Translations under genes and position numbers: made by a program
Notes under the pieces: generated by a model
What the model was told of the DNA's origin: nothing
The model's database searches: none
Seen by the model: only the letters and a program-made list of their open reading frames with translations
Source of the DNA: an uncultured virus (IMG/VR IMGVR_UViG_3300010998_000493)
Taxonomy: Duplodnaviria > Heunggongvirae > Uroviricota > Caudoviricetes
DNA length: 64,000 nt
Strand: one strand, 5' to 3'
IMG/VR virus record: IMGVR_UViG_3300010998_000493
In this document: positions 6,961 through 51,400 of the stretch, one piece after another
Position numbering within the stretch: position 1 is the first letter of the stretch
Layout of the letters: every line of letters starts with the position of its first letter

Positions 6961-6962
6961 AG

Positions 6963-8033: not shown

Positions 8034-8036
8034 AGT

Positions 8037-8393
8037 TTATCTTTCACTTATTCGTATTATTACTTCATTGATTTCATTTGCCAGATGCTGCACACGCTCT
8101 TCCATTTGGGAGAAATGATGGATGTGTGCCTCATGTGCAAGCTGATTCAGGTTATTCGCCATGCCAGCCAATGAGCGAAGCAGAGAAGCTTCCTCTTTGG
8201 ATATGGGTTCCTTGATATAACCGTTGACAGCCAACTCGTAAACCAACGTGGAGAGAGACATGCCTGTACGCCTTCGCTTGTTCAACAGTTTCTTGTAACT
8301 TTGTTCATCGAAATATACTTTTACAGGAAAAAGGCGTTTCTCACTTTCTGGTTTCTTCGGGCGACCGCCTTTGTTTGGTGTTTGGGGGTGCAT
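8037..8393 (-). CDS. mobC: MobC relaxosome accessory protein
   Basis: GGRPKK..LAGMANNLNQLAH motif; start at 8393 chosen so the gene clears the oriT. Confidence 0.85.
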   Translation of the reverse strand: MHPQTPNKGGRPKKPESEKRLFPVKVYFDEQSYKKLLNKRRRTGMSLSTLVYELAVNGYIKEPISKEEASLLRSLAGMANNLNQLAHEAHIHHFSQMEERVQHLANEINEVIIRISER

Positions 8394-8445
8394 AGTTATA
8401 AAATGGCTATGTGGATATTTGGTATTTTCGGCTTTTTTGAGCCGT

Positions 8446-8475
8446 GGTTTTGTGGGACGCAAAACCTATACTTGC
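8446..8475. other. Putative oriT (inverted repeat plus nic-like site)
   Basis: GGTTTTG(8446-8452)/CAAAACC(8460-8466) immediately followed by TATACTTGC, upstream of mobC. Confidence 0.55.
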
Positions 8476-8747
8476 TCCCCCAAACACTATAAAAACCACC
8501 CTTTGGGTTATTGTATAGGGAAGAGCTGCTACGCCGTAATGTGCAGGAGCGTAGTCGACCTGGCTGCCCATGATTTGATGCTACTTTTTCCATGCTTTTG
8601 AGTCCTTTTTTTATTGGCAGATAAGAATTTCCTTTTTTGCGTGGGTAAATAATTATTTGATGAAATGTTGAATATTGTTGAGGGAAACAGGAGCCATAAT
8701 TGCTTATAGCAAAGTCTTTTAGGCTCTTTAGTCAACAATTCAACAAA

Positions 8748-9950: not shown

Positions 9951-9952
9951 AA

Positions 9953-10273
9953 TCAGAAATGTCTTAGCTTAATGGAGCCTGCTTCCTTAGCCAGCGAAAG
10001 TGCCATGTCTGCATCTACGATTATCTTGCGTCCAATTTGCGTAATGGCAGCATCTATGATGCCACTGCGCTTGATGCGGTTTGCGGTAGGCACACTACAC
10101 CCAAACACCTGGGCAATGCCCTCAATTCCATAATAGGTTCGTTTCTGAACGATTGGGGTTGTTTCACTCCTCTTTGCCTCCATGCTGCTTCCAATCAAGA
10201 AGGTCAGTTCTTCGCCAGTCATCATAGCGATGGGCTTCTGGAGGAGTTGCTTGATGTCGAAATTCTTTTCCAT
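9953..10273 (-). CDS. DUF3853-like excisionase/HTH protein
   Basis: YGIEGIAQVFGCSVPTANRIKRSGIIDAAITQIGRKIIVD. Confidence 0.85.
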   Translation of the reverse strand: MEKNFDIKQLLQKPIAMMTGEELTFLIGSSMEAKRSETTPIVQKRTYYGIEGIAQVFGCSVPTANRIKRSGIIDAAITQIGRKIIVDADMALSLAKEAGSIKLRHF

Positions 10274-10378
10274 GACTATTTTTGAATTTAATTGTTCAAC
10301 GTTTGAGGCATACTGAGCCTCGTTTACATTCTCTGAAATCGATTTCGACGGCAAAGGTAATGGGTAATAGAAAAGCAA

Positions 10379-10415
10379 TCGGTCGGCTTTATTTGTAAGA
10401 AATAAAACCGACCGA
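10379..10415. terminator. Inverted repeat (terminator or regulatory site)
   Basis: TCGGTCGG-CTTTATTT...AAATAAAA-CCGACCGA between genes. Confidence 0.5.
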
Positions 10416-10447
10416 CTTTTAACAAATGAAAAGAGAAAATGGGCTTG

Positions 10448-11719
10448 TCAGGCTGTTTGGGCAAAGATGTGAGTCCAATTATCCATGATGCGCTTGGCTC
10501 GTTTATAGCTGCTCCCATAGGGGTCAAGGCTGAATGATGACGATTTCAATTCCCCATATCGTTTTTGGGGAATGTCATACCCTATCTTTCGCCCACAGAA
10601 TAGTTCTATGGCACGATGGAAAGTCATGTAGGAAAGAGAATCACTCACCTTTCCTGTTCTGACTAAAGAACGCAACAAATAGGCAAGACAGATGTCATCC
10701 GTATTTTCTGCCAGAAAGTGGTGTATCTGCTTTTTCAGAACAGGCACATTACCAATGAGTATCTCATCCAGTGTGCGGATAGTCTTCTTCTTTCCTCTTT
10801 TCCCTTTTGTCTTGTGCAGCAGGAACAAGACATCTTTCCATATTTCGGGATTGCAGTCCTCCACGGCACTCTCCCAAGATGCCTTGGTCTCTGCTCCCAG
10901 TTCCATACTTTGATGAACAAGCATATGGACACAATTACGAATGAGAACCAGCCCACTTTCATCCATTTCTTCTTTCATCAGGATGCTATTGAGAATCTTC
11001 ATCATACGAAGCAGTCCGTGGTCGATAATCACGAAATAGTACATACAATAAGCCAAGGCGTCACCATCTTCAACCACCTTATCATATAGATTTGCAAGGA
11101 AACCTGGGATGAACACAGCCTGAGCCAAAGTAAAAATGTTAGCAAAGAAGGCAAGGGCTTGATAGAACTGTTTGCGTTCCAGTTTGCAGAACAACAAGCA
11201 TCCCTTGGAACTTCGCAGCAGCTTGTCCGTCTGGCTTATAAAATGAGACTTCATGTATTGCGGCAATCTGTTCCAAATTTCCAAAGGAGTTCCAGACCGA
11301 ACCATCAGCAGCCCTTTCTGTTGAGACGTATAGATGTCCACCTTACCTGTTTTCAGATTGATACCTAACCATAACTGACGGTTGACCATACATTGAGCTA
11401 TCTTTTCGGTATATTCGCCAGCCCATTGTTTATCTGCACTTATCAAGTGCATTCGGGCAGGATTCTGAGAAACCAAATCGTAGAACCAGGTATAGAAAGC
11501 TTGGGCTTCAGGTGGAACACAAGTCTTCATCAGCGAGTACATGTCAAAGAGCACCGATAGGTCACCGGTTTCAATACGGTCAATCCGTTTCTTGAAATCT
11601 GCATACTCTTTCTTGTTTTTCAACTTCCAAGTGCAAATAAACATATCTGTCTTTTCCTTTCTCAAAGAAAAGTCGGGGAGAATCTTTGAAAAGTTCAACT
11701 TAAACATATTGCCAAGCAT
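10448..11719 (-). CDS. Conserved hypothetical protein of Bacteroidales integrative elements
   Basis: 423 aa ORF coupled to the integrase stop. Confidence 0.7.
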   Translation of the reverse strand: MLGNMFKLNFSKILPDFSLRKEKTDMFICTWKLKNKKEYADFKKRIDRIETGDLSVLFDMYSLMKTCVPPEAQAFYTWFYDLVSQNPARMHLISADKQWAGEYTEKIAQCMVNRQLWLGINLKTGKVDIYTSQQKGLLMVRSGTPLEIWNRLPQYMKSHFISQTDKLLRSSKGCLLFCKLERKQFYQALAFFANIFTLAQAVFIPGFLANLYDKVVEDGDALAYCMYYFVIIDHGLLRMMKILNSILMKEEMDESGLVLIRNCVHMLVHQSMELGAETKASWESAVEDCNPEIWKDVLFLLHKTKGKRGKKKTIRTLDEILIGNVPVLKKQIHHFLAENTDDICLAYLLRSLVRTGKVSDSLSYMTFHRAIELFCGRKIGYDIPQKRYGELKSSSFSLDPYGSSYKRAKRIMDNWTHIFAQTA

Positions 11720-13218
11720 TAGTCGTTTGACTTCTTGATGGTTTCCAAAAGGCGAACAAGATCGGCCTCTGACAAATCTGACAGTTCTGCAAGCAGCTTG
11801 TCTCGCTTTGAGAACCCAGTTTCTATGTCCAACAGTTTGGAGTTATATTCCATCTGTTTCTCCAAAGGATAAGAGTCAAGATAGATTTGTGTAATGGCAT
11901 GACTGCCTGAAGAATGCCCCATGCTTTCAGAGATATACTCCATCTCCACGCCAGCATTGCGGAGATTGGTTGCAAAAGAATGACGACACCAAGTTCCCGA
12001 AGGACGGATGGATTCATCCCAGTGAAGAGCCTCATAACATATCTTGATAACTCGGTCTTGAACATTAGAGTTCTCTTGCTGCGTCCTCATCCTGCGGTCT
12101 CTTTCACTCTCCGCACCATTGAGAATCTGAGGAAATACATATCCATCGCGTGTGGGAGGTGCTGCAATTTCATCGAGAATCTTCTGTAAAGGCTCGATGA
12201 TGGGGATGATGACTTCTGAACCATCCGCACTGTTTCTTGCAGTCTTCTTCCTATTGAAACGGAAAGCCTTGCCCCCGTTCTGGAAGTAATAAGTGTCATA
12301 CTTCAATCGTGCTGCATCAGCCATGTTGAAGCCATTGCAGAGGTACTGCACCAAGAAAAGCCCCAAAGAATAATGAGCCATCTTCGTGTAGTGTTCGCTC
12401 CAAGTCTCTGGATATTGCTTTGAAAGAAAAAGGTTGTAAAGCTCCGTCATCTGGCTGACACGAAGATAGTATTTGCGTCTCTTTCCACTTGTTGGGATGC
12501 TGACGAGTCCTTTTTCTTTCCTGTTGGAAAAGGGATAAGGTACATCTTTAAGATAGCCTTCTCGAAGGCAGGTATTCCATACGGCACGACAGGCACGGAG
12601 ATAAATGCCAGCCGTCGTGTCCCTTATCTTGCCAACGATTTTTCCTTTCTTTTTTACACCATCCCGCATACCATCCTTCCACTTCTGAATCTCTGCAGCA
12701 CTAATCTTGAAGCCTTCAATGGAATTTTCACCCATGATCTTGCGGAAAGACTTCAAAGCGCTTATATAACTCTCACTGGTTGTATAGCGGATACCGTTGT
12801 CATCTGTTTTGAGGTGATAGATGATTTCCTCCCAGATGCCAAAAAAGGAGCGGTTTTCTTTCTCTTCGGCTGTAGCTTTACCTGTTGTCACAGCCACCCG
12901 AACCATCTCAAAAGTCAAGAGCCCTCCCTTGTTAACAGCCTGCAATAAGTTTTTGTACTTAGGGACAATGGTCTCTCGCCACATCCGCTGCTCCTTATAT
13001 TTCTCTGAGGAACTTTTTGTGGCATTGCAGATGTCTGAAAACTTCTTCTCGGAGTATGACCCACCGACAGGATGATAGAAGAACTTACGATCGATGGTAA
13101 AGCGAAGCGAAAGAGGGAATTCTGTCGCATTGTGCCGTTGCGTACGGCGGTCAAGAACTAAGGAGGCGGTACAGTTACGCTCCTTGATGACGGGAAATGA
13201 TTTTGTCAATGTTGCCAT
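11719..13218 (-). CDS. Tyrosine recombinase/integrase
   Basis: Arm-binding N-terminus (FPLSLRFTIDRK), R.KT, RHSFAT, MGHS..TQIY catalytic Tyr. Confidence 0.93.
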   Translation of the reverse strand: MATLTKSFPVIKERNCTASLVLDRRTQRHNATEFPLSLRFTIDRKFFYHPVGGSYSEKKFSDICNATKSSSEKYKEQRMWRETIVPKYKNLLQAVNKGGLLTFEMVRVAVTTGKATAEEKENRSFFGIWEEIIYHLKTDDNGIRYTTSESYISALKSFRKIMGENSIEGFKISAAEIQKWKDGMRDGVKKKGKIVGKIRDTTAGIYLRACRAVWNTCLREGYLKDVPYPFSNRKEKGLVSIPTSGKRRKYYLRVSQMTELYNLFLSKQYPETWSEHYTKMAHYSLGLFLVQYLCNGFNMADAARLKYDTYYFQNGGKAFRFNRKKTARNSADGSEVIIPIIEPLQKILDEIAAPPTRDGYVFPQILNGAESERDRRMRTQQENSNVQDRVIKICYEALHWDESIRPSGTWCRHSFATNLRNAGVEMEYISESMGHSSGSHAITQIYLDSYPLEKQMEYNSKLLDIETGFSKRDKLLAELSDLSEADLVRLLETIKKSND

Positions 13219-13514: not shown

Positions 13515-13698
13515 CGAAGATTCTGTGAATCTCACAAAGAATTACAGGATATTAACATCAAAGAATGAGATAAACAATAAATTTGCATGCAATTTACTGA
13601 TAAGAACGGCAAAAATCGATGAGTTGGCCTTTATGGGCAATCTTTTTTATACACTCTGTGTATAAGCAAAATGGACTCTAAAAATAGTCTCGAAAAGT

Positions 13699-22280: not shown

Positions 22281-22913
22281 TCAGAAGAAGCGGGCAATGG
22301 AACCAAGCACCTCAAAGACACGTATGATGCGTGAGATGCCGAACTCCTGTTCATCGTATTCTTGATTGATGGGGACATAACGTAGCATATCAGGTGTGGA
22401 GCCACGTCGCAAGATTTTGATGGTTCGTATGGTGTCAAGCACGACTGCATATATTTCTCCGTACTGAATATCATTGATGGAGCACTCATGCAGTGCAATG
22501 ATGTCACCATGATTGATTTTCGGTTCCATAGAATGGCCTGTGACGTTGCACCAAACAGAAGCCTTCTCAAAGCCCGGCACCAGGACATTACAAGCCGGAA
22601 CCGTCGTCTGATTGTTGAATATCTCGTTGAAGCCACCTATGAAGTCCACATCGTAATATGGTGTTCCTACAGCCGGATCAAAGCTCACCTTTGCTGGAAC
22701 ATTCTCTTCTTTCAGCATAGCACCTTTGCCTGTGAGCAACCAATCCGAAGACAACTTTTCGCATTTTGCAAAAAGAAGATCATAATCAATCGTGTCACGA
22801 GACAGCCAAGAACTGATGGTTGACGGAGCAACCCCAATCATCTTAGCAAACACAGATGGTTTACCATCGCTATAATGGGCAATTATTGCCTCAAGCCGTT
22901 CTTTTTTAGTCAT
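22281..22913 (-). CDS. Phage CI-like repressor (HTH plus S24 peptidase)
   Basis: FAKMIGVAPSTISSW HTH, WLLTGKG, VTGHSMEP..TIK S24 Ser/Lys dyad. Confidence 0.93.
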   Translation of the reverse strand: MTKKERLEAIIAHYSDGKPSVFAKMIGVAPSTISSWLSRDTIDYDLLFAKCEKLSSDWLLTGKGAMLKEENVPAKVSFDPAVGTPYYDVDFIGGFNEIFNNQTTVPACNVLVPGFEKASVWCNVTGHSMEPKINHGDIIALHECSINDIQYGEIYAVVLDTIRTIKILRRGSTPDMLRYVPINQEYDEQEFGISRIIRVFEVLGSIARFF

Positions 22914-22915
22914 AA

Positions 22916-23017
22916 TTTTGCAGTTTGCGAAAAATAATCTCGAAAACATTTTGCATTTTGCGAAACGTTTACTATCTTTGCAGGCGTATTCATTAAGTGA
23001 ACAGCGCGACAAAGGTA
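22916..23017. promoter_or_regulatory. Lysis/lysogeny switch: operators and opposed promoters
   Basis: TTTTGCA(G/T)TTTGCGAAA at 22916-22933 and 22949-22965; TATCTTTG (+, 22973-22980) and TACCTTTG (-, 23010-23017). Confidence 0.75.
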
Positions 23018-24004: not shown

Positions 24005-26059
24005 ATGGAGTATTACAATAAGACATTGTGCGTAACATTCAAGGAACTAACAGAGGGCGGTATCATAACTGGCCCAACACTTCTGAAGAACGTCCAGCGA
24101 GGCAACATCCAGTGTGCCAATCGTGGTGGGGGTGAAGGTTCAAAGGCTCTATATGTTTATGCGTCGCTCCCTATGAAGTACAGGATGATGTTTGAAGCTA
24201 AGTATGGCAAGCCCGCAGACGTACTGAAGGCTCAGGACCTGAAGGAGCGGGTAAAGGAAGACAGTAATGCCAGAGTATTTTATGAGGCTTTTGAATATGA
24301 TTTGAACGGTGTTCAAACGCGGTTGAGCCAGAAACTCATTGATGAGTACACGGGCAATGCCAGTGTGCTGAAGATGCTCTGGGAGCGCATGAACGAGCTT
24401 ACGGCGACGACCCACGCTCTTGGCGGTGGCAGGCGCGGCGACCTCTGGGACATCATTTTCAGACAAAGCGAGAAACTGAGAGAGGTTACCGGCCACACCC
24501 TGCCTAAGAACCTGGCGCGATTGAAGGAGAAGATGTCACATTATAAGAAAAGCGGATATGAGACTCTGATCAGTGGCAAGGTAGGCAATAAGAATACCCT
24601 GAAGATAACCGAGGATGCCGGACGCAGGCTGATAGCCCTGAAGCGCAGCCGCGTGCCGGTACTGACGGACAGCCAGATATTCGACACCTTCAATCAGGAG
24701 TGCGAGGTTAAAGGCTGGAAGCCATTGAAGAGCGTGAGAAGTCTGAAGACATGGCTGGAGAGTGCTGCCATTGAACCATTGTGGCATGATGCAGTATATG
24801 GAGAGATGAGTGCCCATCAGAAGTTTGACCGCAGGCACAAGACCCAGTTGCCTACGATGAGGGATGCCCTCTGGTATGGTGACGGCACGAAGATAAACCT
24901 CTACTACCGTGACGACGAAGGCAAGGTGAGGACTACGAGCGTGTATGAGGTCATCGACGCTGCAACGGAAATGTTCTTAGGCTTCTGCATCAGCGACAAC
25001 GAGGACTACGAGGCTCAATATATGGCTTACAGGATGGCTATTCAGGTGAGCGGTCACAAGCCCTATGAGATTGTGCATGACAATCAGGGCGGCCATAAGA
25101 AGTTGCAGAGCCAGAAGTTCTTTGACAAGCTCTGCCACATCCACAGAACCACCGCCCCCTACAACGGCGCTTCAAAGACCATTGAAAGCGTATTCGGACG
25201 TTTCCAAATGCAGGTACTTCATAAGGACTGGCGCTTCACCGGTCAGAACATCACGGCTAAAAAAGACAGCAGCCGTCCGAACATGGAGTTTATCGAGGCA
25301 AACAAGGATAAGCTCTACACCTACGACGAACTGAAAGCAGCCTACCTGAAGGCGCGAACCGAATGGAACGAGATGGCACACCCCGCCACCGGCGAGCAGC
25401 GCATAAAGATGTACGAGCAGAGCGAGAACCCCGAAACACCCGTAGTGACCGCGAGCGACATGATAGATATGTTCTGGGTACAGTGCGACCGCATGAGCAC
25501 CTTCACCAGTAGCGGCATAGAGATAACCGTGAAAGGTCAGAAACGTGTGTACGAGGTGATGAGTGAACCAGGAGTGCCCGATATAGAGTGGCGCAGGAAG
25601 CACACCTATCAGAAATTCGTGGTGAAATACGACCCCTACGACTTCCAGAGCATCCGCTTGTACTGGAAAGACAAGGCCGGCGAACTGAGGTTTGAGCGTG
25701 TAGCGGAACCCTATATCGTAATACATCGCGCCATTCAGGAGCAGACGGAAGGCGAGGCTACATTCATCAGGCAGCAGCAGAAAGCCATAGAGCAAAGCCG
25801 GATAGAGCGTCAGGTGACAGGCAGGCAGATAGAGTTTGCCGAGGGTGTGGCACCAGAGCAGAACGGTCTCAGCAGTCCAGGCTTGAAGGGAGTGACCGCA
25901 GATGTTCAGAGGCAGATAGACCGCAGGCTCAGAAAGTACGGCAAGGAACCGGAGGAACTAAGCCTTGGCAGGTTGACAAAGAAGGTGAGCAAAATGGACT
26001 GGAGCGAAGTGAGCGAGACAGTCACCATTGATATGAAGAAAGTGGCAGGTAAACTATAG
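24005..26059 (+). CDS. Mu-like DDE transposase (MuA)
   Basis: WYGDGT, HDNQGG, SKTIESVFGRFQ DDE triad; 684 aa. Confidence 0.93.
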   Translation: MEYYNKTLCVTFKELTEGGIITGPTLLKNVQRGNIQCANRGGGEGSKALYVYASLPMKYRMMFEAKYGKPADVLKAQDLKERVKEDSNARVFYEAFEYDLNGVQTRLSQKLIDEYTGNASVLKMLWERMNELTATTHALGGGRRGDLWDIIFRQSEKLREVTGHTLPKNLARLKEKMSHYKKSGYETLISGKVGNKNTLKITEDAGRRLIALKRSRVPVLTDSQIFDTFNQECEVKGWKPLKSVRSLKTWLESAAIEPLWHDAVYGEMSAHQKFDRRHKTQLPTMRDALWYGDGTKINLYYRDDEGKVRTTSVYEVIDAATEMFLGFCISDNEDYEAQYMAYRMAIQVSGHKPYEIVHDNQGGHKKLQSQKFFDKLCHIHRTTAPYNGASKTIESVFGRFQMQVLHKDWRFTGQNITAKKDSSRPNMEFIEANKDKLYTYDELKAAYLKARTEWNEMAHPATGEQRIKMYEQSENPETPVVTASDMIDMFWVQCDRMSTFTSSGIEITVKGQKRVYEVMSEPGVPDIEWRRKHTYQKFVVKYDPYDFQSIRLYWKDKAGELRFERVAEPYIVIHRAIQEQTEGEATFIRQQQKAIEQSRIERQVTGRQIEFAEGVAPEQNGLSSPGLKGVTADVQRQIDRRLRKYGKEPEELSLGRLTKKVSKMDWSEVSETVTIDMKKVAGKL

Positions 26060-26101: not shown

Positions 26102-26968
26102 ATGGAACAGAAACAGAAAGAACAGATTGCACAGCGTCTGAGGACGTATGTAGCGAAGTATCGCAGCCAAAACAAGGCAGTGGGCAGCCTGAAAGGAACA
26201 AGTGCCGGAACAGTGAGCAACATCCTGAACGGCAAGTGGGAAAACATCAGCGAAGACATGTGGAAGAAGATAGGCGACCAAGTGGGCACCGGCAGCAGTG
26301 AAGACGGCTGGCAGATAGTGGAGACAGGCGCCTATCAGGAAATCACCTACGCGCTGCATGATGCCCAAGAGTGGAAAAACGTGACATGGGTAGTAGGCGA
26401 AGCCGGATGCGGCAAGACCACGACTGCGAAACTCTATGCGGAGGAACACAAGGAAGTTTTTTACCTGCTATGTTCAGAGGACTTGCACAAGGGCGAGTTT
26501 GTGAGAGAAATTGCCCGTCTGATAGGCATCCGTACTGAAGGCTACACGGTCAGAGGATTGTGGACCGCCATCCTTGACAACCTCATTCAGATGGATGCGC
26601 CCCTTCTCATCTTCGATGAAGCAGACAAGCTGACCGAAAGCGTGTTCCACTACTTCATCAGCCTCTACAACAAACTGGAAGACAAGTGTGGCGTAGTATT
26701 CATGAGTACGGACTATATCATCAAACGCATTGAAAAGGGGCTGAGATTGCAGCGTCCTGGCTATAAGGAATTCTACAGTCGCATCGGCAGGAAATACTTT
26801 GAGCTGGATGATACAACCGCTAACGATGTCTATGCCATCTGCACAGCCAACGGGCTGAGAGACCGCAAAGACATAGATGAAGTGATTAAGGATGCGGAGG
26901 AATACGACTATGACCTCCGCAGAGTCAAGAAGAGCATCCACAGGGTAAAACGTTCTAAGGCTGCATAA
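26102..26968 (+). CDS. MuB-like AAA transposition ATPase
   Basis: N-terminal HTH, GEAGCGKT, LIFDEADK, DLRRV. Confidence 0.92.
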   Translation: MEQKQKEQIAQRLRTYVAKYRSQNKAVGSLKGTSAGTVSNILNGKWENISEDMWKKIGDQVGTGSSEDGWQIVETGAYQEITYALHDAQEWKNVTWVVGEAGCGKTTTAKLYAEEHKEVFYLLCSEDLHKGEFVREIARLIGIRTEGYTVRGLWTAILDNLIQMDAPLLIFDEADKLTESVFHYFISLYNKLEDKCGVVFMSTDYIIKRIEKGLRLQRPGYKEFYSRIGRKYFELDDTTANDVYAICTANGLRDRKDIDEVIKDAEEYDYDLRRVKKSIHRVKRSKAA

Positions 26969-28930: not shown

Positions 28931-29500
28931 ATGACGACAAGAAAGAAAAAGACCATTATTTCCGGCGTGACCCGTGAGGCAGCCGACGAAGCATTCGGCA
29001 TCTATGCTAAAGCCGATGCAAGCATCAGCAAGATTAACGCTGAGATTGAGCTGAAATGTGCTCAGATCCGTGACAAGTACGCAGATAGGTTGGCTCAGTT
29101 GAGTGAGGAACGTGATGAGGCTTTTGACAAGCTTCAGGCTTTTGCCACCGAGAACCAGTCAGAATTATTTGCCAAAAAGAAGAGTATGGAAATGGCTCAT
29201 GGTACAATCGGATTCCGCACTGGCACCCCGAAACTGAAAACTTTGAAAGGTTTCACCTGGGCGAGTGCACTGCAGCTTGCAAAGAAATTCCTTCCGGTCA
29301 CTTACATCCGCATGTCAGAAGACATAGCGAAGGACAGACTGCTTGCGGACCGTGACCTGAAAGAGACCGTGGTATATGACACCCCGACAGGTGAACCTCG
29401 GGAAGTGACCATGCGGGAAGCGATGGCCATATGTGGCATCCAAGTGACTCAAGACGAAACCTTCTATGTAGAACCAAAGAAAGAGAATACCGATAATTAA
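28931..29500 (+). CDS. gam: Gam-like host-nuclease inhibitor
   Basis: KKKSMEMAHGTIGFRTGTPKL..GIQVTQDETFYVEP. Confidence 0.85.
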   Translation: MTTRKKKTIISGVTREAADEAFGIYAKADASISKINAEIELKCAQIRDKYADRLAQLSEERDEAFDKLQAFATENQSELFAKKKSMEMAHGTIGFRTGTPKLKTLKGFTWASALQLAKKFLPVTYIRMSEDIAKDRLLADRDLKETVVYDTPTGEPREVTMREAMAICGIQVTQDETFYVEPKKENTDN

Positions 29501-29917: not shown

Positions 29918-30350
29918 TGTCCGTAGTGGCAACAGTGTATAGCATTTCATATATCTTGATACCGTGGCTCCAAGTGTAGAAGCGTGACTTCTCACGTATG
30001 AGTTCACCATCCTGATCAGGACGGAAGCCCTGCAAGATCTTGTGAAGCTCTTTGACCATTTCTGCCCTGTCAAGCGTTTTTTCTTCCGTTTCTGAACCAT
30101 AGTGGGTGTCATCATAGCAGTCAATGACCAGACGCACGTTGACCTTCGCCTTTCCCTTCTGACTTTTTCCGCTGAGATTAGACCAGTCCGTTTCCGGTAT
30201 GTCGATGAGCACACAGGGGAAGGTGACAGGATAAGTGTCAACATCCTCTTTGTCGATAGCTTCCAGTTGTCCGTAATCCTCATCAACCAGTGAGAGTGAA
30301 TGCATGGACTCCTTGATGTGGTTAATGAGATGATAAAGCAATAATTCCAT
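29853..30350 (-). CDS. Tail completion/terminator protein (Mu gp37-like)
   Basis: VDEDYGQLE..YPVTFPCVLID; synteny. Confidence 0.65.
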   Translation of the reverse strand: MELLLYHLINHIKESMHSLSLVDEDYGQLEAIDKEDVDTYPVTFPCVLIDIPETDWSNLSGKSQKGKAKVNVRLVIDCYDDTHYGSETEEKTLDRAEMVKELHKILQGFRPDQDGELIREKSRFYTWSHGIKIYEMLYTVATTDIIQETERVAAPRKVVLSAGIL

Positions 30351-30939
30351 CTTTAATTTTCTGAATTGAGTCGTTAATGAGTTTGTTTATTTTCACGCGT
30401 AGTTCTGCAGAGTCGCCCATGAACTGGCGCCTGGGGATATGCGCATGGACGGTGATGTTCCGTTTCTTTGTAAGCGCAAGTCCCTTCCACATACCAGTCT
30501 CAGCAGGCAGTTCCTTCGGGAGTTTGCCTTTGCCCTTGATGCCGGCAAGCGAATAGACCATGTGCCAGGCATACTTCCGCATCCGTTCTGTGACAGTGGG
30601 ATGTGTGGTGATGTCGCCACCGTCATTGTGGATGGCAGCATACGGCACAGGGTTTTCGATGGTGACTTGTCCCGGAGCAGTCTCTGCCTGGATAGAACAC
30701 ATCATGTGGTTCCTTCTGGACGTAAGCGGTCCATACTTCGCATCAGGAGAATTGGAGTCCTGGCGACGTGTCCGTTTCCAGGGGTGCAGCCCATTGTCGA
30801 GCCAGCCGCCATCCCGGAAGTTCTGCTTGAAGTGGTTTACAGCCACCACCCCGACCTTGCGCGGCAGCCTGTCATGAACTTCTTTGATGATGTCATCCTT
30901 GGCCTTGGCGACCAGTCTTTCTATGTCCCTGGCATCCAT
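30322..30939 (-). CDS. Virion morphogenesis protein (Mu gpG-like)
   Basis: PYAAIHNDGG..IPRRQFMG. Confidence 0.88.
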   Translation of the reverse strand: MDARDIERLVAKAKDDIIKEVHDRLPRKVGVVAVNHFKQNFRDGGWLDNGLHPWKRTRRQDSNSPDAKYGPLTSRRNHMMCSIQAETAPGQVTIENPVPYAAIHNDGGDITTHPTVTERMRKYAWHMVYSLAGIKGKGKLPKELPAETGMWKGLALTKKRNITVHAHIPRRQFMGDSAELRVKINKLINDSIQKIKDGIIALSSH

Positions 30940-30945
30940 GACAAT

Positions 30946-31194
30946 CTATTTGTGAAGCTTTCCCTCGAACATATACAGAGCATGCTCTCTGTAAAACGAA
31001 AGCGGCCCCTTGATACGCTGTCGCTGTATAAGATACCTGAGTCTTGACTGTGAAGTGACAATAGGCCTGCCCTTGAAATTGAGAACCATATACAATCCAG
31101 GTTGCTGCCAAGCACAACGCTTAGCCTTGCGAATAGCACGCTGCAGGCGGAACTTGAAAACTAAATCTTTGAAGAAAAAGATGATTTTTTTCAT
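30946..31194 (-). CDS. Small basic hypothetical protein
   Basis: 82 aa ORF between MuF and the gpG-like gene. Confidence 0.65.
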   Translation of the reverse strand: MKKIIFFFKDLVFKFRLQRAIRKAKRCAWQQPGLYMVLNFKGRPIVTSQSRLRYLIQRQRIKGPLSFYREHALYMFEGKLHK

Positions 31195-31234
31195 AATTTA
31201 TTTGGTATTTATAAATAAATGTGTACTTTTGCGA

Positions 31235-31308
31235 CGGTAAGAGTCAAAGCAGAGTCAAAGTCTCGTGCTCGGCTCCAACCTCCACTCGGGACTTCGGTCC
31301 CGTTTTTT
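31235..31308 (+). ncRNA. Candidate ~70 nt small RNA convergent with the MuF-toxin 3' end
   Basis: TTTG(31201-31204), 19 nt spacer, TACTTTTG(31224-31231); internal hairpin; terminator CGGGAC-TTCG-GTCCCG-T6 (31287-31308). Confidence 0.7.
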
Positions 31309-32748
31309 ATTGATATACATAGCACTTTGATCCATGTTTAACAATGATCGTTCTCTCTTTGGAAGATTGATACAAATAGCCATTAATCGTTTTACTGATA
31401 GTCCTACGTGATACAAACGTGGGAATTTCCAACACTACATTGTCTGCTTGTTTTTTAGCCTCTTTGATTCTGTTGAGAATATCATTATGATATTTTTTCT
31501 TACTACCATTAGGCTTTATTCCCATCATGCTCTTCCCATCGAATAACATACCTCCGATGTAAAAGTCTGGGTTCTTGTTAGGGAATACCCCTGAAGGAAG
31601 TAATGTAGAGCGTAATGGCGCAAGAGTATAATCGCGTGGATCAAGTCTTGGCAACAGATAAACTTTTTTCCCTAACTTGTCGGCGATAAAAGCCCCCAGA
31701 CGTTTATTGTTCGCTACCTCATTGCTGCCATGATATGGGCTTGTCATCACTTTTCCGTTGTGCGATGGGCGGTATGTATCAACGCTTGGCGGTGGAACGT
31801 CAGAAGCCTTCCTTACTTTATCCGCTGCTTTTTTCATCTTGTTATCGATGAGATGGCAACTATAGCAATCCTTTTCTTGATTTATGAATAAGCCTTTGAG
31901 TTTATTCTTTAATCCACGGTTAGCGAAACACTGACTGCAGCTCTTCGGGAAGTACGGGTGTTTGTCTGAGAATGTATGTCCGTCCTTGCCCGGATTGTTT
32001 TCAAGTCCGCGTTGTGGCTGTGTAGGTTTCAAGTCAACGGGACGCACTACAGGCTCATCGGTAGCCTCCAGAGAGCATTTGCAGTTCCATCGGTCGCCAG
32101 GGTGATGCTCGTTCCAAAATGGATCATCGACGGGCAGCGTGAGCTTCATGCGCCAGTAGGCAGCGTGTGTACTTTCCGGTTCCGGTGACGTGGTTGGCAT
32201 CCAGCGCAGGTTTGGGAAGATGTCTTTGTTCCGTTCAAACTCCTGCCAATCGGCAGCAGCATGTGCTCTTATAACAGCCGTGTCGTACTCTGTGCGCAGC
32301 CATGCGCCCACCTGGTGGGAAGAGATAGAAGACACGTCACGCAGCCACTTGTCAAATGATTTGAGGTTGCCGCTGGCATCGAAGAGCTTTGCAGCCATGT
32401 CCTCACCCATCTGATGCACCTTGAAGGCTGCGAACACCTCGTTGGAGTGGCGCAGGTTTTGATAGAAGAGGCGGTCGTGTGTTGGCGGTGTCTTCGCCTG
32501 AGAAAGTCCCTCTACGGTTCCTTCATTGATGACACGCAGCACCTCACGCCAGATGGCCGGCTCAATCTCGTTTGAAGTGTCGAAGCCGTTATATACCTTT
32601 TTCAGGAACTGGCTGAGGACATTGGCATCAAAGCGGATGGAGTTTTCAAATCCGGTACCACTGCAACATGAGCAACCATGATGGTGCTCCCCATAATAGA
32701 GCGAGTCAATCAGAAGTCGGTGTCCGCCCCGGTGTTCGGGGCTATTCC
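31307..32748 (-). CDS. MuF minor head protein with C-terminal CdiA-like PD-(D/E)xK nuclease; probably translated by -1 frameshift from the portal gene
   Basis: LRTEYDTA, H..PVDDPFW..PGDRWNCKC MuF motifs; NPDF..FDGK..KKQADNVVLEI tip; frame is open back to the portal slippery site with no start codon before GTG 32542. Confidence 0.85.
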
Positions 32749-34050
32749 GAAAAAACGGTTCAAGATGTTTTTGAACGCTTTTCTATCAGTGCTCAAAGGC
32801 TGTTTCCCATCCGCGTTTGTTGAGTCGTTGAGTGCCTTCCGGACAGCCTCTTTGTTAGCCTGAGCCTCAGCCTTCTGTCGGTCGTAGTCCTTTGGCTTCT
32901 CTACACCAAAAGTCTCATAGAGCCAATCATCATCCATTGGCAGACCCATACTCTGAAGCTTCTGTACAATGTCGATTTGCTGGGAAGGAATGATCTTGTC
33001 TTTCTTGGCATAGACGAACTCTCCGCCATCTACATTGAAACCCAGCGCGGCAAAGATAGGTCGCATCTGATAGTTCAGAATGTCCAGGATAAACTCACGG
33101 TCATCCGTGTTCATGTCATCCTCTTCCTCCTTGTGGACTTCACCCAGCGCCTGTGTGCCTGTTTCCTTCGCATCTGTTGTGAGCGTGTTGCCCAGGACAC
33201 GAATGGAAATCTTGCTGTCCCAATAGTCAGCAAACGTCTTGTAGAGGTCGCTGGAGCCCGTCTTGTTGCCTGCCTCAATCAATGTCAGTTCGCTATCCTT
33301 CGGGTGGATATAGACGGCATTTGAGCCTTGTCTTCTGGCATCAGCAATAAGGCGCTTGCGTGCTGTTTCGTCACCTGCATCATAGGTGTATTCCCTTATA
33401 GGCATACCGAAGATGTTGCAGAACTGAGCCCAGTCTGCCATATCTCCACGTTTATAGAGAACAGCCGGCATGAGTTCCGCGAAGATGCCCAGTCCTCTCT
33501 CAGTGCCGACAAAGAGGCAGTTGGGGAAGTTCTCAATGGGTATTCCTTGCTGGTCGCCCTGGAACTTCAAGAGCTGCTTCTGCACGGGGTCATAGTGCTT
33601 ACGGTCAATAAGGTCATAGCGGATGTTCCCCTCTTCGTCGAGGTAGAACTGTACGAGGGTAAAGCCCCAGAACTCAGCCATGATGAAGTCCTTGCGCAGC
33701 TGCTTGAACCAAGGAGAACGCAGCTGTGCATTGATTGTGTCATCAGGTTCCCCGTTCCGCTGGAACTCAACAGGCAGGCGTGTGACTCCCCTGAGGCGCT
33801 TTGCCAGGACACCAGACAGGTGTAGGTCAAGCAAGGCGGACTCATACATGTCAAAAAGCCTTGTACGGTTGGAATAGTCGATGCTCTTTGCCAACGTGAC
33901 AGAACTCATGTAAGCGTTCATGTCGAACAGGAATATCTCCGGCATCTGCAGCACCACATCCGGCAATCTCTGGCCGTTGGGAACACGCATACCACCCTGA
34001 GTGATCTGCTTGGTGCTGTTCCTCTTATTTTTAATCTTATTCATAGTCAT
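32710..34050 (-). CDS. Portal protein (Mu gp29/DUF935-like)
   Basis: DLHLSGVLAKR, WAQFCNIFGMP, VLGNTLTT..GTQALGEVH. Confidence 0.92.
   Translation of the reverse strand: MTMNKIKNKRNSTKQITQGGMRVPNGQRLPDVVLQMPEIFLFDMNAYMSSVTLAKSIDYSNRTRLFDMYESALLDLHLSGVLAKRLRGVTRLPVEFQRNGEPDDTINAQLRSPWFKQLRKDFIMAEFWGFTLVQFYLDEEGNIRYDLIDRKHYDPVQKQLLKFQGDQQGIPIENFPNCLFVGTERGLGIFAELMPAVLYKRGDMADWAQFCNIFGMPIREYTYDAGDETARKRLIADARRQGSNAVYIHPKDSELTLIEAGNKTGSSDLYKTFADYWDSKISIRVLGNTLTTDAKETGTQALGEVHKEEEDDMNTDDREFILDILNYQMRPIFAALGFNVDGGEFVYAKKDKIIPSQQIDIVQKLQSMGLPMDDDWLYETFGVEKPKDYDRQKAEAQANKEAVRKALNDSTNADGKQPLSTDRKAFKNILNRFFGIAPNTGADTDF
32726..32755 (-). promoter_or_regulatory. -1 programmed ribosomal frameshift signal (portal to MuF)
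   Basis: T TTT TTC heptamer (32755-32749), 6-nt spacer, GCCCCG-AACAC-CGGGGC hairpin. Confidence 0.8.
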
Positions 34051-34491
34051 TTATCTGAATGTAGGTCTTATATCGTCAGCTTGTATTTGCCAGGGGGAAT
34101 TGCCGCCAAGTTCCTCAGCGGGCAACAGCGGGGCCCCATCGATGGTGATGTCACCCTTCATGACACCTTTGAGCCATTCGATGGCGCGGTCATATCTGTC
34201 CTGTCTTATCTTGGCAATCTTATAGGGATTGTGCTGACAGAAAATGTGATATACGGTGATGTCGATGGCGAACATGAGAATGAGCGCGTGGCGGTCAGTT
34301 CCTGTTGCTGAAAAGATGGCATCACAGTCATACGCCTTGTTCAGATAAGAGCGCATTTCCGCAATGGCTCTGTCCTCACATATCTCTATAATCTGAGGGT
34401 CATAGGATGCTGAGTCTTTCCGCAGGAGTGAGTCAAGTATCTCCCTGTGGATGGTCGCATCATAGTCTGTGGTATTGATGAAATTTGCCAT
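34051..34491 (-). CDS. Head-tail adaptor (Mu gp36/DUF1320-like)
   Basis: AIAEMRSYL..YD..DITVYH..RYDRAIEWL. Confidence 0.88.
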   Translation of the reverse strand: MANFINTTDYDATIHREILDSLLRKDSASYDPQIIEICEDRAIAEMRSYLNKAYDCDAIFSATGTDRHALILMFAIDITVYHIFCQHNPYKIAKIRQDRYDRAIEWLKGVMKGDITIDGAPLLPAEELGGNSPWQIQADDIRPTFR

Positions 34492-34493
34492 AG

Positions 34494-36023
34494 TTACATT
34501 CGATATGGGTTTTGTTCGTTAAGTTCCTTGTATGAGATAGTGACAGCCGGTTGCAGTTCGGCAGTTTTCTCGGCAATAATGGTTAAGCCACCTTCAATGC
34601 AGTCCGGACCATCGGCATTGTAAGGCAGGTGCATTTCAAAGAGTTTGAACTGATTGATGAGTTCCTGCATGTGCGGATTGTCCTGTTCGTCTTCATTGAA
34701 TATCCAAGCTCCGTTTCTGTCAATCGGTTCCAGATTGGCTTCAATACGAGTTGCCTTGTCCGTCTTCTTGCGCTCATCGCCTTTGATGTAGAGGTCGCGC
34801 TTGCGCTTCTTGCACTCATCACGCAGCAGCGGTTTGAATACCTGATTGAAGAAAGGATCTTGCAGTTTGTTGTTCTCCATGTAGCAATAGACGTTGGTCT
34901 TCCCTGCCACATAGTCCATCAGGTCGAAGTACCAACTGATAAATACCGCATTGAGTTCGCGGGCGAGGAAGCCCTTAATAACATAGAACACCCCTTTGTA
35001 TTTACCGACAAGCCAGAGCGCCTTCGTACTGGAAGCCTTTTTCTTGGAGTCCGAATAAGCAGGGTCGCCATACATGATAAGGAACGGGAACTTGCGAAGC
35101 GGCGGCACCTTGCCAAAAGGCAGGTTCTTGAAGACGTTGCCCTCGGAAACAGGATTGTTGAAATACTCAGCCTGGGCATTCTTTGAAGAGATATTTGACA
35201 GTACGATGTCTATTTGCTCTTCTGTATTTTTCTGCGGCCAAGTGCTCTTTCCGTTCTTATCCCTGATATTGACTATATCCCAATGCTTAGCACGTTCGCC
35301 GGCTCGCTTGATGCAGCAGTCCTTGGCAATGATGTTACCGCACCATAGCACAAGTGTAGGCTCAGAGATGGAACGTGTGGGATAAAGCGCACCTTCAAAC
35401 CAGTCCCACTTCTTTTTCAGTGTCTCAGGATTGCGGCAGTCCTCATCTGTGTCATAGTCATCAAGGTAGATGACATCAGGACGTACCTCTTCATTCCTGG
35501 CACCACGAGGGGCAGAACCGGCACCGAGGGCAACGAACTTTGCCCCACAACGTGCAGTAAAGTCCTTATCGGTCCAGGCACCAAGCGTTACCTGATTGCC
35601 GTAGAACTGCCGCAGGCGCGGGTTACTCTCGAAGTTGAGCCTGTAAGGAATAAGCAGACGGATTGCAGATGTCTCAGTAGCCGATGCCAGGACAAAGAAC
35701 CTCTTGCGCCCTGTCAGTGCCAGGAACATATTGATGAACATGGCCACCGTTGACTTTGCCAGTTCACGGCACCATGACAGCACTTCATACCATTCAGGAT
35801 GATCAATGACTCGGTGGATAGCTTTGACGTGGAAAGGCGCAAAATCATACTTGGCATACTTCGGGAAGAAATACTTGATCCACTCTATGGGGTCTTTCTC
35901 CAGCTCCATACGTTTTTTCTGAATGTCACGTTTAGACATCCAGTCTTCTACGGGAACGTCAGCGGCAAGCGCCTTGTGATGCTCTTCCCATCGACCGAGT
36001 GCTTTTCTTTCTTCGAGTGTCAT
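34494..36023 (-). CDS. Terminase large subunit
   Basis: RELAKST, RPDVIYLDD, YGDPA, DGPDC nuclease motifs. Confidence 0.92.
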   Translation of the reverse strand: MTLEERKALGRWEEHHKALAADVPVEDWMSKRDIQKKRMELEKDPIEWIKYFFPKYAKYDFAPFHVKAIHRVIDHPEWYEVLSWCRELAKSTVAMFINMFLALTGRKRFFVLASATETSAIRLLIPYRLNFESNPRLRQFYGNQVTLGAWTDKDFTARCGAKFVALGAGSAPRGARNEEVRPDVIYLDDYDTDEDCRNPETLKKKWDWFEGALYPTRSISEPTLVLWCGNIIAKDCCIKRAGERAKHWDIVNIRDKNGKSTWPQKNTEEQIDIVLSNISSKNAQAEYFNNPVSEGNVFKNLPFGKVPPLRKFPFLIMYGDPAYSDSKKKASSTKALWLVGKYKGVFYVIKGFLARELNAVFISWYFDLMDYVAGKTNVYCYMENNKLQDPFFNQVFKPLLRDECKKRKRDLYIKGDERKKTDKATRIEANLEPIDRNGAWIFNEDEQDNPHMQELINQFKLFEMHLPYNADGPDCIEGGLTIIAEKTAELQPAVTISYKELNEQNPYRM

Positions 36024-48437: not shown

Positions 48438-51400
48438 ATGGCAAAAGTTATTGACGAGAAGATAGAGAGCAAGAACACCCCGTGGGAAGGCTATGCGGGT
48501 AGACGTGTGGAAGAGTACATTAAAACTGCACTTGATAACAAGGCCGGAGAGTTTTACCATGATGAGACGAAGGACATCGTCCTTGTCTTTGCCGGTGCGG
48601 CCGAGCGAGACGAGTATCTTGACCCTGAGACAACGGAGGAGCGCCGCAGTGAGCTGCTGCTGGGAAGTTTTGATGCTCCAGCGAACTATACGGCAGAAAT
48701 ATCAATGGCTACGCCAATGAGTAATGTCATCCTTGCAGGCAAGACTGGCAACTATGTGGATTTCACTTTTGACATCAAGAGCCGCACGGGAAGCAGTACG
48801 GGTGAATCTGTCCTTGTCACCTACACCATCAACAATGCCGGCAACATCAAGAAGATAACACAGATATACGCTGCGGGAACAAGTGTACACTTCCTTGTTG
48901 ACCAATATCTCAGCGCGGGTAACAACAACATCAGTGTTCACGTCACCGGCCGCAATACGCTCGTAAGTACAATCGCCGCAGTCAACTATACTGTTGTCGC
49001 TTTGGAACTGACGAGTGACTTTGACATCAGCCAGCCTGTGAGACAAGGCGACTATCTGGCAATTCCTTACACTCTGTCGGGTACCGGCGTGAAATATCTG
49101 GAATGGTATATTGACGGTGAGCTGCAACAAGACATAGATACGATTACAGACTTAAAGGTCAACCGTATAAAGAATATCGACACGACTGAATTGCCAGTCG
49201 GCAAACATAGCGTGCAAGCCAGGGCGTACTTTGCATCTTCCGGAACCAATTATTACGGTGCCACATTGTATTTTGACTTCGTCCTGACTCCGGCTGACGA
49301 TATATGGCAAGAGGATGTCACTTACATTCTCCTTTCATTTGTTCTCGACGCTCCGGTGACAAGCACAATCAGTATAGAGGCGACACAATATAAGGAGTAT
49401 TCCTTCGGCATTGCTGTATATGACAGTCGCTCACGTTCACTCGCATTGACTATCTCTGACAACGGACAGCAGATACAAGACCTCACGATGGTCCCTGACG
49501 TGGCACGGCAGATACCATACATACCCACGACGACAGGAAATCATGTGCTGACATTCTCATGTGATGAAGCTACGGTATCTATCAACGCATCGGTAGTTAG
49601 CGGTGACGTGGACATTAACGAGGTAACGGAGGATGTCCTGCTTAAGCTCTCTGCCAAGGGCAGGAGTAACAGTGAGGTGGACCCTGCCAAATGGGTGTAT
49701 GGAAACATCACAACTACGTTCAACGGTTTTAGCTGGAATGAGCAAAGCGGCTGGAATAACGGTGTCTTGACCATACCGGCAGGGGCAAGCATAGACATCA
49801 GTTTTGCGCCTCTGGGCGGCAACCCTGTTACAAGAGGGCGCACTATCGAGATAGACTACGAGACTGCGAACATAGAGAACGATGATGCAAGCGTTATATC
49901 TCTTGTCAACAGCAACACCGGTGCAGGACTTGATATCACGGCATCCTCGGCTAAATTGCAGTCAAGCGGCGGTGCCAATGTGAACACCAAGTACAAGGAC
50001 GGTGACCGCGTGCATCTTGCTTTCATCATCAACAAGACTACAGGCGATAGCGGAAGGCTGATGTTCATTGTCAACAACGGTATATTGGAACGCGCCGCCA
50101 GCTTTGCAGCTACAGACGTGTTCCAGGTTGGAGACAATCTGCACATAGGTTCTGACGGCTGTACTGTTAAGATACACTCCATCCGTATATACGATAAGGC
50201 ACTTACTGCCGACGAGGCTTTCTGTAACTATGCCGTTGACTCCGACAATCTCATTGAAATAGCAAGCAACAATGACATACTTAATGAAAGCACCGGCCTG
50301 ATAGATGCGGACAAGGTCAACGCCAAAGTGCCGATTATGATCATCACCGGTGATATGCAGCCGATATTTGACGCTACGAGCAAGGACGCTACCGTCTATG
50401 TGGATTTGGAGTATCGTAATCTGCAGGACCAGTCCAAGAATTTCACAGCCACCCATGTCAGGATGAGACCGCAGGGTACTTCATCATTGGGCTATCCAAG
50501 GAAGAACCTCCGCCCTTACACTGCCTCGAAATACGGTTGCGTGATGTATGATGCCAATGGCGAAGTGATAGAGAACGGCCTGTATGCTTTCAAAGACGGT
50601 GCGCAGCCTGTCAACTGCTGGACGCTTAAAGCGGACTATGCGGAATCGTCAGGCTCTCACAATACCGGCGTTGCACGTCTGTGGAATGAACTGATGTACA
50701 ACTGCCAGCTCAACGGTGAATTTGCCTTGCGCACCAACGCACAGAAGGCGGCACTGCAGGCAGGCTATAACTATGACGTGCGTACTACGGTAGACGGATT
50801 TCCCATCGTGGTATTTCACAGGCAGACCGTGAACTCGGAACTTGTTTGCCTGGGGCAATACAACTTCAACAACGACAAGTCCACGGAGAAGGTGTTTGGC
50901 TTTACCGACATCCCCGGCTTTGACAACAAAGACGTGCAGTGTTTTGAGTTTTTGGCGAATGAGAGTCCTATCTGTCTGTTTGACGACATATCCGAATTTG
51001 ACACCAAGTGGAGTGACGCTTTTGAAAGCCGTTATCCCGACACAAAGACACCGGACCTCGTTCCTCTGAAGACCCTTGCGACATGGATTAACAGCTGTAA
51101 GGAAAATCAGGAGAAATGGAACGAGGAGAAAGCGAGCCATTTTGATTTGCCCAAACTGGCAGCATACTATGTCTATCTGATGCGCTTCGGGGCAGTTGAC
51201 CAGACTGTGAAGAACGCCATGATAACGACAGAAGACGGCGAACACTGGTTCTTCATCAACTACGATAACGACACCATCCTTGGTATTGACAACATCTCCA
51301 CTGTGCTTAACGCATGGAACTATGACCGCAGCTCACGGAAAGCAGGCGGAGCATATTACTACGCAGGACACAACTCTGTACTATGGAATTGCTTTGAGGC

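Follow-up and report, generated by a model that had tools for sequence, protein, structure and literature searches.

The stretch analysed here, called the window, is 64,000 nucleotides (nt) of DNA from an uncultured virus of the Caudoviricetes (IMG/VR record IMGVR_UViG_3300010998_000493), and it carries a Mu-like prophage at about 22.3-57 kb. In the head-gene block of the prophage a MuF head protein is fused to a nuclease domain, the toxin tip. The gap of 112 nt between the MuF stop codon and an open reading frame (ORF) of 82 amino acids (aa) holds a small-RNA unit on the plus strand, at 31201-31308. We have found that this unit is, on comparative evidence, a conserved, structured, non-coding gene opposite the toxin and linked to the toxin domain, and the RNA that it is predicted to encode may, tentatively, be an antidote to the toxin. 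The features at the locus are as follows (positions are those of the window).

31201-31204, plus strand: -33 element TTTG, separated by a 19-nt spacer from the -7 box
31224-31231, plus strand: -7 box TACTTTTG (TAnnTTTG, the box of the Bacteroidota primary sigma factor)
31236-31308, plus strand: predicted small RNA of ~73 nt, its start placed from the box and its end at the T-run
31236-31245, plus strand: 5' arm of stem P1, 8 of its 10 positions pairing with 31271-31280
31240-31250 and 31251-31261, plus strand: two copies of an 11-nt tandem duplication, AGAGTCAAAG(C/T)
31271-31280, plus strand: 3' arm of stem P1, ending in a near-invariant AACC
31273-31277 and 31280-31284, plus strand: CTCCA, twice
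31281-31286, plus strand: single-stranded linker UCCACU
31287-31308, plus strand: intrinsic terminator, a GC stem of 6 base pairs (bp) with a TTCG loop (31287-31302) followed by T6 (31303-31308)
31307-32542, minus strand: MuF head protein of 411 aa (PF04233 + PF18451), following the portal gene and fused to a CdiA-CT(1026b)-like PD-(D/E)xK nuclease tip (~31310-31795)
30946-31194, minus strand: 82-aa ORF (phrog_22181)

A preliminary description of the window had proposed, on the strand opposite the toxin, a unit with a consensus promoter, a hairpin, a repeated element, CTCCA twice and a terminator whose T-run overlaps the toxin stop codon. A promoter of the Bacteroidota type (TTTG and TACTTTTG, 19 nt apart), a stem of 10 bp around a hairpin, and a GC terminator hairpin at 31287-31308 were all found. 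The T-run (31303-31308) overlaps the stop codon of the toxin on the minus strand (31307-31309), and the terminator stem-loop was recovered independently by a terminator search of the window. The repeat AGAGTCAAAG is also present but is not conserved, as the 11-nt duplication is private to the window copy and is found neither in the closest relatives (loci L097 and L098) nor in any other relative; it leaves P1 intact and, in the fold, lengthens the inner hairpin. Similarly, both copies of CTCCA exist, but only the second lies within the conserved motif AACC-UCC. The fold of the unit has an energy of -27.5 kcal/mol (z = -3.3), which was equalled by 1 of 200 shuffles.

The promoter consensus of Bacteroidota is quoted in a passage of PMC7366714 as -33 TTTG and -7 TAnnTTTG. 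As the sigma-A box TAnnTTTG spans -12 to -5 according to the relevant part of PMC9723704, the RNA is predicted to begin with the first stem base, G 31236. The bipartite pattern TTTG-N17-21-TAnnTTTG occurs four times on the two strands of the window, once at the unit, and for TAnnTTTG on its own 0.045 occurrences are expected by chance per 110 nt of a single strand (from 1.29 Mb of loci). The other three full patterns are at 13538 (minus), 13699 (plus) and 22950 (plus); those near 13.6 kb face each other and the one at 22950 abuts the repressor gene. No ATG follows the predicted start in the window unit, and the ATG-initiated ORFs of other units are short and not conserved. With a predicted -33/-7 promoter and a predicted Rho-independent 3' terminator, the unit has the features by which intergenic small-RNA genes of Bacteroidota are recognised.

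The toxin had been related in the preliminary description to the CdiA-CT of Burkholderia strain 1026b, and the searches agree. Pfam assigns the protein to PF04233 (MuF) and PF18451 (CdiA_C), the latter with 32.9 bits against a cut-off of 26.6, and a profile search of the PDB with the tip and its relatives gave a single convincing chain, 4g6v_A (E 0.0035). An AlphaFold2 model of the tip, made from an alignment of 24 sequences, had a predicted local distance difference test score (pLDDT) of 95.2, and in a Foldseek search with this model 4g6v_A was the only match below E 0.001 (E 1.4e-4, template-modelling (TM) score 0.62), the next being at E 0.09. This chain is the B. pseudomallei 1026b CdiA-CT. 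The tip is, to judge from its profile and modelled fold, related to this nuclease, which cleaves transfer RNA (tRNA), and may have tRNase activity as well. In the part of a review that deals with 1026b CdiA-CT, the cut in tRNA-Ala is placed in the aminoacyl acceptor stem, in keeping with the cleavage near the 3' end given in the preliminary description, and the immunity protein CdiI is said to sit in the active site (PMC9086364). The toxin tip, its homologues in stand-alone genes and the 82-aa protein had no family in either PADLOC or NCBIfam.

A scan of viral contigs for the MuF protein gave 79 distinct loci, 73 of them with a complete MuF ORF; loci in which the ORF runs off the contig (L042, L059, L063, L065, L075, L082) were dropped from the counts. 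The complete genes were of the following kinds.

Toxin-less MuF of 234-235 aa, 3 loci: G-like gene after 1-9 nt, unit absent
Toxin-bearing MuF with a non-coding unit, 58 loci: one opposite-strand TAnnTTTG 52-105 nt past the stop, no ORF
Toxin-bearing MuF with a glutamine-deamidase tip (PF15644), 12 loci: one opposite-strand TAnnTTTG 245-252 nt past the stop

An opposite-strand promoter box was therefore present after the stop codon in 70/70 toxin-bearing MuF genes (58 non-coding, 12 deamidase). In the deamidase loci the box drives a convergent ORF of 82-87 aa, counted from a conserved start, which overlaps the end of the MuF gene by 18-48 nt (8 of the 12 loci were inspected for both). The sections of PMC11699363 concerned with Bacteroidales MuF toxins describe a small immunity ORF after each of them, including the glutamine deaminase type, and make no mention of RNA; the deamidase convergent ORF thus fits the protein immunity known for that toxin type. 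At L068-L085, 224-252 nt after the MuF stop, there is a convergent immunity ORF that has no Pfam family. A second viral scan added 10 new distinct loci, comprising 1 toxin-less, 3 with non-coding units and 6 of the protein type. Its toxin-less locus (L184) has a 1-nt gap and no box, which brings the toxin-less MuF genes without the unit to four distinct ones (L050-52, L184), with the G-like gene 1-9 nt downstream. Tips on one MuF backbone form nine clusters, and the clusters of post-stop sequence nest within the tip clusters, none being common to different tips. Co-variation of the small RNA with toxin type, which the preliminary description had named as a check, is therefore observed, and the unit is missing where the toxin is missing. 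Judged from the gene order, the predicted RNA unit stands where another tip type has its gene for an immunity protein.

Scans of genomes and metagenomes with the tip only gave 32 further loci, 26 of them with a box at most 125 nt past the stop; in L091 the distance is 143 nt. Two loci (L087, L104) have broken toxin frames and an intact unit, L100 stops at a contig edge, and L096 and L117 are distant or partial matches without such a unit. Together with the viral loci, the RNA family comprises 26 distinct sequences from 39 loci, and its members share a plan of box, 4 bases, a P1 of ~10 bp around a variable hairpin, AACC-UCC, and a terminator at the toxin stop. A first covariance model, built from 8 seeds and run on 61 sources (347,586 nt; hits at E <= 1), produced 32 hits, 31 at the ends of toxins of this type (3 of them on the other strand). 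The single match away from a toxin end was L095:1129 at E 0.29, and the 23 sources with other tips or no tip gave 0 hits. The window has one match to this model, at 31232-31288 (35 bits, E 1.8e-7).

Pairing statistics were computed on 22 distinct rows of a model-fitted alignment, which leans towards structure. In this alignment 93.1% of P1 cells were paired compared with 74.4 +/- 2.0% in shuffles, and 41 cells were changed on both sides compared with 13.6 +/- 3.0, with 0/500 shuffles reaching the observed value in either case. When the register was slid, the best pairing was 53.5%, and when pairs were counted independently at fixed positions of the arms, 145 of 200 were Watson-Crick, with wobbles in addition. 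A second covariance model, built from 18 sequences, recovered the held-out loci L014 (E 2e-5), L115 (E 0.016) and L090 (E 0.059), as well as L091, L101 and L102. The units are 0.54-0.77 identical to the window copy, compared with 0.33-0.47 for third codon positions in the last 100 toxin codons; by this measure the unit is under purifying selection and diverges far more slowly than the third codon positions of the toxin. UCC or GCC follows P1 in 16 of 20 distinct relatives, and GG...AACC-UCC is constant as the remaining stem changes by compensation, in L115, L116, L171 and L173 also. The toxins of L115 and L116 have only 34-36% identity and the motif is still held.

Some members of the family depart from the common plan. 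The unit at L091:2011-2153 (minus) has two P1-like domains in tandem and is the only one to do so, and two successive terminator-like hairpins are seen at L086:1767-1857 (minus) and in L087. In L087 an in-frame stop lies 23 codons before the toxin end (~1915-1917) and in L104 the toxin frame is broken at ~1680, the RNA unit being intact in both; this could be toxin decay with retention of the RNA, or an assembly error.

Homologues of the toxin were also found outside phages. A profile search of 401 Bacteroidales genomes gave 17 toxin matches in 15 genomes, within open frames of ~446-471 aa or 110-250 aa, and 16/16 matches outside the genome already known had an opposite-strand box 43-149 nt past the stop, followed by a 5' hairpin domain and a 3' terminator that often straddles the stop codon. 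In L115 the homologue is a stand-alone gene of 176 aa among non-phage genes, and in L116 a stand-alone gene of 180-210 aa; both retain the box, a P1-like stem, AACC-GCC and the terminator, and L171 and L173 retain GG...ACC-UCC. Judged by eye from translations, the neighbours in L115 are a 477-aa ComM/YifB-type ATPase-like protein and a 286-aa HAD-family hydrolase-like protein, and those in L116, also named by eye, are GH92-type glycosidase-like and YraN-type-like genes. From these gene neighbourhoods, toxin domain and predicted RNA are an autonomous two-part module, carried on the MuF proteins of Mu-like Bacteroidales phages and as stand-alone chromosomal genes. In 156 genomes searched for the RNA family, true matches were present in 2, both at the toxin. 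Weak model hits in L120 and L121 were rejected as chance, one being inside a coding sequence and neither lying beside a toxin or having a toxin blast match. Exact-pattern scans of viral contigs returned the same phage only, along with chance matches in unrelated DNA (L004, L006), and blastn against the phage GenBank collection gave no match.

It was possible that immunity to the toxin is provided by the 82-aa ORF, with the RNA being incidental. This ORF is the first past the toxin, is small and belongs to phrog_22181, and so has the place and size usual for an immunity gene. However, homologues of it were present in 1/18 viral loci of this tip cluster and in 2/32 of the further loci, that is in 3/50 (window, L097, L098), and they also adjoin unrelated tips, of the LPD3 type (L016, L017, L019, L020, L022) and of another kind (L021). 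The copy in L098 is only 41% identical to the window copy although the toxin tips are 76% identical, and in an alignment judged by eye it matches the copies beside LPD3-type toxins over most columns. Because the homologues do not track toxin type, we conclude that the 82-aa ORF is a backbone gene and not the cognate immunity gene; that it confers the immunity is scarcely credible. In most loci no ORF lies between the toxin and the next backbone gene, and no CdiI-like ORF is present here. It was also conceivable that the function lies on the strand of the toxin messenger RNA (mRNA), as a processing or stability hairpin, with the opposite strand transcribed without effect or not transcribed. The stem can form on either strand, and with the first model the subfamily of L014, L099 and L113 was scored on the mRNA strand. 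Nonetheless, opposite-strand boxes accompany the toxin in 70/70 MuF loci and 16/16 distant homologues, and a terminator-like hairpin with a T-run at the toxin stop was found on the small-RNA strand in 42/50 distinct non-coding units and on the mRNA strand in 0/50. The second, broader model scores the small-RNA strand above the mRNA strand at the same place in 5/5 held-out loci, L014 among them, and we consider a function of the mRNA strand very improbable.

The reading that we prefer, with a little less than even confidence, is that the RNA would be an antidote of the toxin, an antitoxin or immunity factor, and that, once folded, it would work by binding the nuclease directly. The RNA-based immunity suggested in the preliminary description is partly supported, in so far as a conserved, structured and toxin-linked non-coding gene exists, but not in its proposed mimicry of tRNA-Ala. 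Transcription of an RNA of ~73 nt would begin at a host-type promoter belonging to the unit, run towards the toxin gene's end and stop at the unit's own terminator, at the toxin stop codon; contact with the nuclease would be made, in the manner of type III toxin-antitoxin pairs, by the conserved end of the helix (G-C, G-C ... AACC) and by the UCC tail. Binding to the protein is preferred because the helix-base and tail motif outlasts the compensatory turnover of the stem, to ~35% toxin identity, because the protein in the same slot elsewhere must act on protein, and because an antidote working on mRNA cannot handle a toxin protein delivered by the virion. Several points weigh against the antidote. 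Transcription of the unit is presumed, as is the antidote function; the binding of RNA to nuclease is a prediction; and the toxicity of the phage nuclease is drawn from homology only. An exchangeable immunity factor might leave orphans, and 0 units away from the toxin were found in the 156 genomes. The asymmetry of G-U pairs (166 of 200 stem positions paired on the small-RNA strand, 156 on the mRNA strand) favours the small-RNA strand only mildly. Mimicry of a host tRNA acceptor stem was tried and rejected, the best of 48 distinct tRNAs of a lysogen genome agreeing at 7/14 stem positions. Finally, the layout would also suit an antisense mechanism, since the RNA and the 3' end of the toxin mRNA are perfect complements.

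In such a type I-like mechanism the RNA would pair in cis with the toxin mRNA around its stop codon and 3' end, within the stretch of the late polycistronic transcript that joins MuF to the next gene, and cleavage of the duplex or a non-stop message would keep toxin output low in lysogens. By construction the RNA can pair with the stop codon and the untranslated 3' stretch of the mRNA, the terminator hairpin of many relatives straddles the stop codon and the last toxin codons, and the stem is nearly as good on either strand. The convergent layout with 3' overlap resembles that of type I pairs of Bacillus subtilis prophages, such as txpA/RatA. Yet the toxin, a nuclease domain of 160-180 aa, is no small membrane peptide, the overlap spares the start region and leaves most of the coding sequence uncovered, and pairing of this kind needs no fixed sequence, so that the persistence of GG...AACC-UCC across the distant toxins is not called for. 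Furthermore, silencing of the mRNA would be no shield against a virion-borne toxin or during production of the toxin for packaging, and the product encoded at this place beside another toxin type is a protein, which must act on protein. We regard the antisense mechanism as unlikely, though worth serious consideration. It is less probable still, and in our view improbable, that the small RNA has another job (late-gene or lysogeny control, a host target, or a transcriptional insulator) and is linked to the toxin through a shared exchangeable cassette. Co-variation with toxin type could be mere linkage, the promoter box belongs to a conserved backbone common to all toxin types, and the conserved CCUCC is the anti-Shine-Dalgarno core, which could pair with other RNAs and is part of a likeness to the 3' end of the 16S ribosomal RNA (rRNA) of a lysogen. 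Against this, stand-alone chromosomal homologues of the toxin outside phages retain the unit, toxin-less MuF genes are without it, and the family is absent elsewhere in the 156 genomes. The likeness to 16S rRNA is between window positions 31271-31286 (GGCUNNAAC-CUCC) and L261:1600-1626 (GGCUGGAACACCUCC), barring a 2-nt gap; it involves the last helix strand and the anti-Shine-Dalgarno tail, and may be chance.

The preliminary description had further suggested that the RNA is a decoy of the tRNA-Ala 3' end, which did not hold up. ARAGORN found no tRNA in the window or in 26 loci, the best Rfam match of the unit was SorY at E 3.5 (noise) with no tRNA, and neither the paired CTCCA nor the repeat is conserved, in addition to the poor agreement with lysogen tRNAs noted above. 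Among 15 related loci Rfam gave nothing at the gathering score, and nothing in L066 and L096 either. A looser form of the idea, in which the RNA would be a pseudo-substrate for an acceptor-stem tRNase and so an RNA-based immunity to a polymorphic toxin, is doubtful. The helix would begin at the predicted first transcribed base with G-C, G-C and would be followed by a 3' U-C-C tail; the A of 'CCA' after the helix is present only in some relatives. On this reading the RNA, which has no need to be translated, could disarm a nuclease that blocks translation as it enters with the phage genome; lysogens would be protected too, and the toxin-RNA pair, once free of the phage, would act as a chromosomal toxin-antitoxin module.

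Units with a tRNA-like element were, however, seen beside another tip cluster. Both L066:4092-4190 and L231:2688-2780, opposite the toxin, hold a tRNA T-arm-like hairpin (5-bp stem, GGTTCGAWTCC loop motif) within a multi-hairpin fold, and neither is called a tRNA by ARAGORN or Rfam. Elsewhere in 260 fetched loci the motif occurs only in real tRNAs and once in L174. The tips of L066 and L231 are homologous (34% identical, E 6e-26), and because both have T-arm-like hairpins mimicry in general is favoured, as is binding to the protein over pure antisense pairing; other tips would then have mimic RNAs of their own, such as these units. A model of the L066-type tip from a 3-sequence alignment had a pLDDT of 59, too poor for a fold search, and a search for L066-type homologues returned only sequences at least 98% identical. 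Public contigs with a given variant of the L066-type MuF protein number up to 491. A Saccharibacteria genome has a distant homologue of the toxin as a small stand-alone gene, and after it, on the same strand (L096:1776-1905, plus), come two identical 36-nt repeats, each within its own hairpin and the second ending in a terminator, without a match in Rfam.

Convergent toxin and small-RNA genes with 3' overlap, borne on prophages, are also a feature of type I systems such as txpA/RatA and bsrG/SR4 of B. subtilis. Type I toxins are small hydrophobic peptides. The toxin here is instead a nuclease domain of ~160 aa, the overlap extends no further than the region of the stop codon, and a fixed sequence motif is retained in the RNA among distant relatives. 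Like the pair described here, type III systems (ToxIN, CptIN, TenpIN; AvcID) consist of a protein toxin and an adjacent non-coding RNA proposed to neutralise the protein, and they are often phage-related. In ToxIN-type systems, as set out in parts of PMC8860590 and PMC5772629, the RNA is an array of tandem repeats upstream of and co-transcribed with the toxin, an RNase of the ToxN/AbiQ fold that processes the array. In contrast, the unit here is a single convergent RNA unit with its own promoter and terminator and no tandem-repeat array, and its partner is a PD-(D/E)xK CdiA-CT-like domain that is often fused to a virion protein. AvcI is described in a section of PMC10511110 as a single small RNA that binds and inhibits a toxin which is not an RNase, and that is lost on transcription shut-off.

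Like the MuF polymorphic toxins already described (Apk2, Bxa and the Bacteroidales glutamine deamidase type), the present toxin combines a MuF N-terminus with an exchangeable toxic C-terminus and lies in the head-gene block of a temperate phage with an antidote gene, here a putative one, adjacent, as far as the portion of PMC11699363 devoted to these toxins goes. Whereas such toxins have protein immunity, 58/70 of the toxin-bearing loci examined here have a structured RNA unit and no ORF. The CdiA-CT/CdiI pair of 1026b (PDB 4G6V) shares the Pfam family PF18451 with the tip, and 4G6V is the best profile and fold match of the tip; in 1026b, unlike here, a type V secretion protein delivers CdiA-CT, and the protein CdiI neutralises it by occupying the active site. 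To our knowledge, the antidotes so far described for polymorphic toxins, those of contact-dependent inhibition (CDI), of type VI secretion (T6SS), Rhs and MuF, are all proteins. In a full-text search of the literature, neither an RNA acting as antidote to a polymorphic toxin nor a small RNA next to a MuF toxin was found to be reported. Antitoxins made of RNA are in themselves already known, and an RNA antidote for a toxin of this kind has probably not been described before. In place of an immunity ORF, a whole set of MuF tips of gut and rumen Bacteroidales phages, together with their stand-alone chromosomal relatives, have a short gene for a predicted structured RNA. If the antidote reading is true, a toxin fold and a gene layout both new to RNA antitoxins are added, the apparent absence of an immunity gene beside these toxins is explained, and annotation pipelines gain a rule for spotting such modules; a 160-aa nuclease and a 70-nt RNA would also make a simple pair for asking how an RNA inhibits a nuclease.

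The remaining genes of the prophage that were placed are listed below; protease, tape measure and lysozyme genes are present beyond Gam.

22281-22949: S24 repressor
24005-26059: rve transposase
26102-26968: AAA MuB-like gene
28931-29500: Gam
34494-36023, minus strand: terminase, first in order in the head-gene block
34051-34491, minus strand: gp36-like gene, after the terminase
32710-34050, minus strand: portal, after the gp36-like gene
30322-30939, minus strand: Mu G-like virion morphogenesis gene (PF05069), the next late gene

At the end of the tail genes a protein of 1984 aa (48438-54392) has BspA-type leucine-rich repeats and a CotH kinase-like region, and is possibly a giant fibre or host-interaction protein. 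Just beyond the tail and lysis genes, a weak HigB-like match at 58371-58709 (23.6 bits, under the Pfam cut-off of 27 bits) is followed by a protein with helix-turn-helix and M78 peptidase regions (58731-59816), and together the two look like a protein toxin-antitoxin pair. The prophage also adjoins a mobilisable element, all on the minus strand, at 6151-13218 of the window.

6963-8033, minus strand: relaxase
8037-8393, minus strand: NikA/MobC
8748-9950, minus strand: DUF5906 protein
11719-13218, minus strand: tyrosine integrase

The DUF5906 protein of this element, which has no family match to a primase, is possibly a primase-like gene, judged from its size and place.

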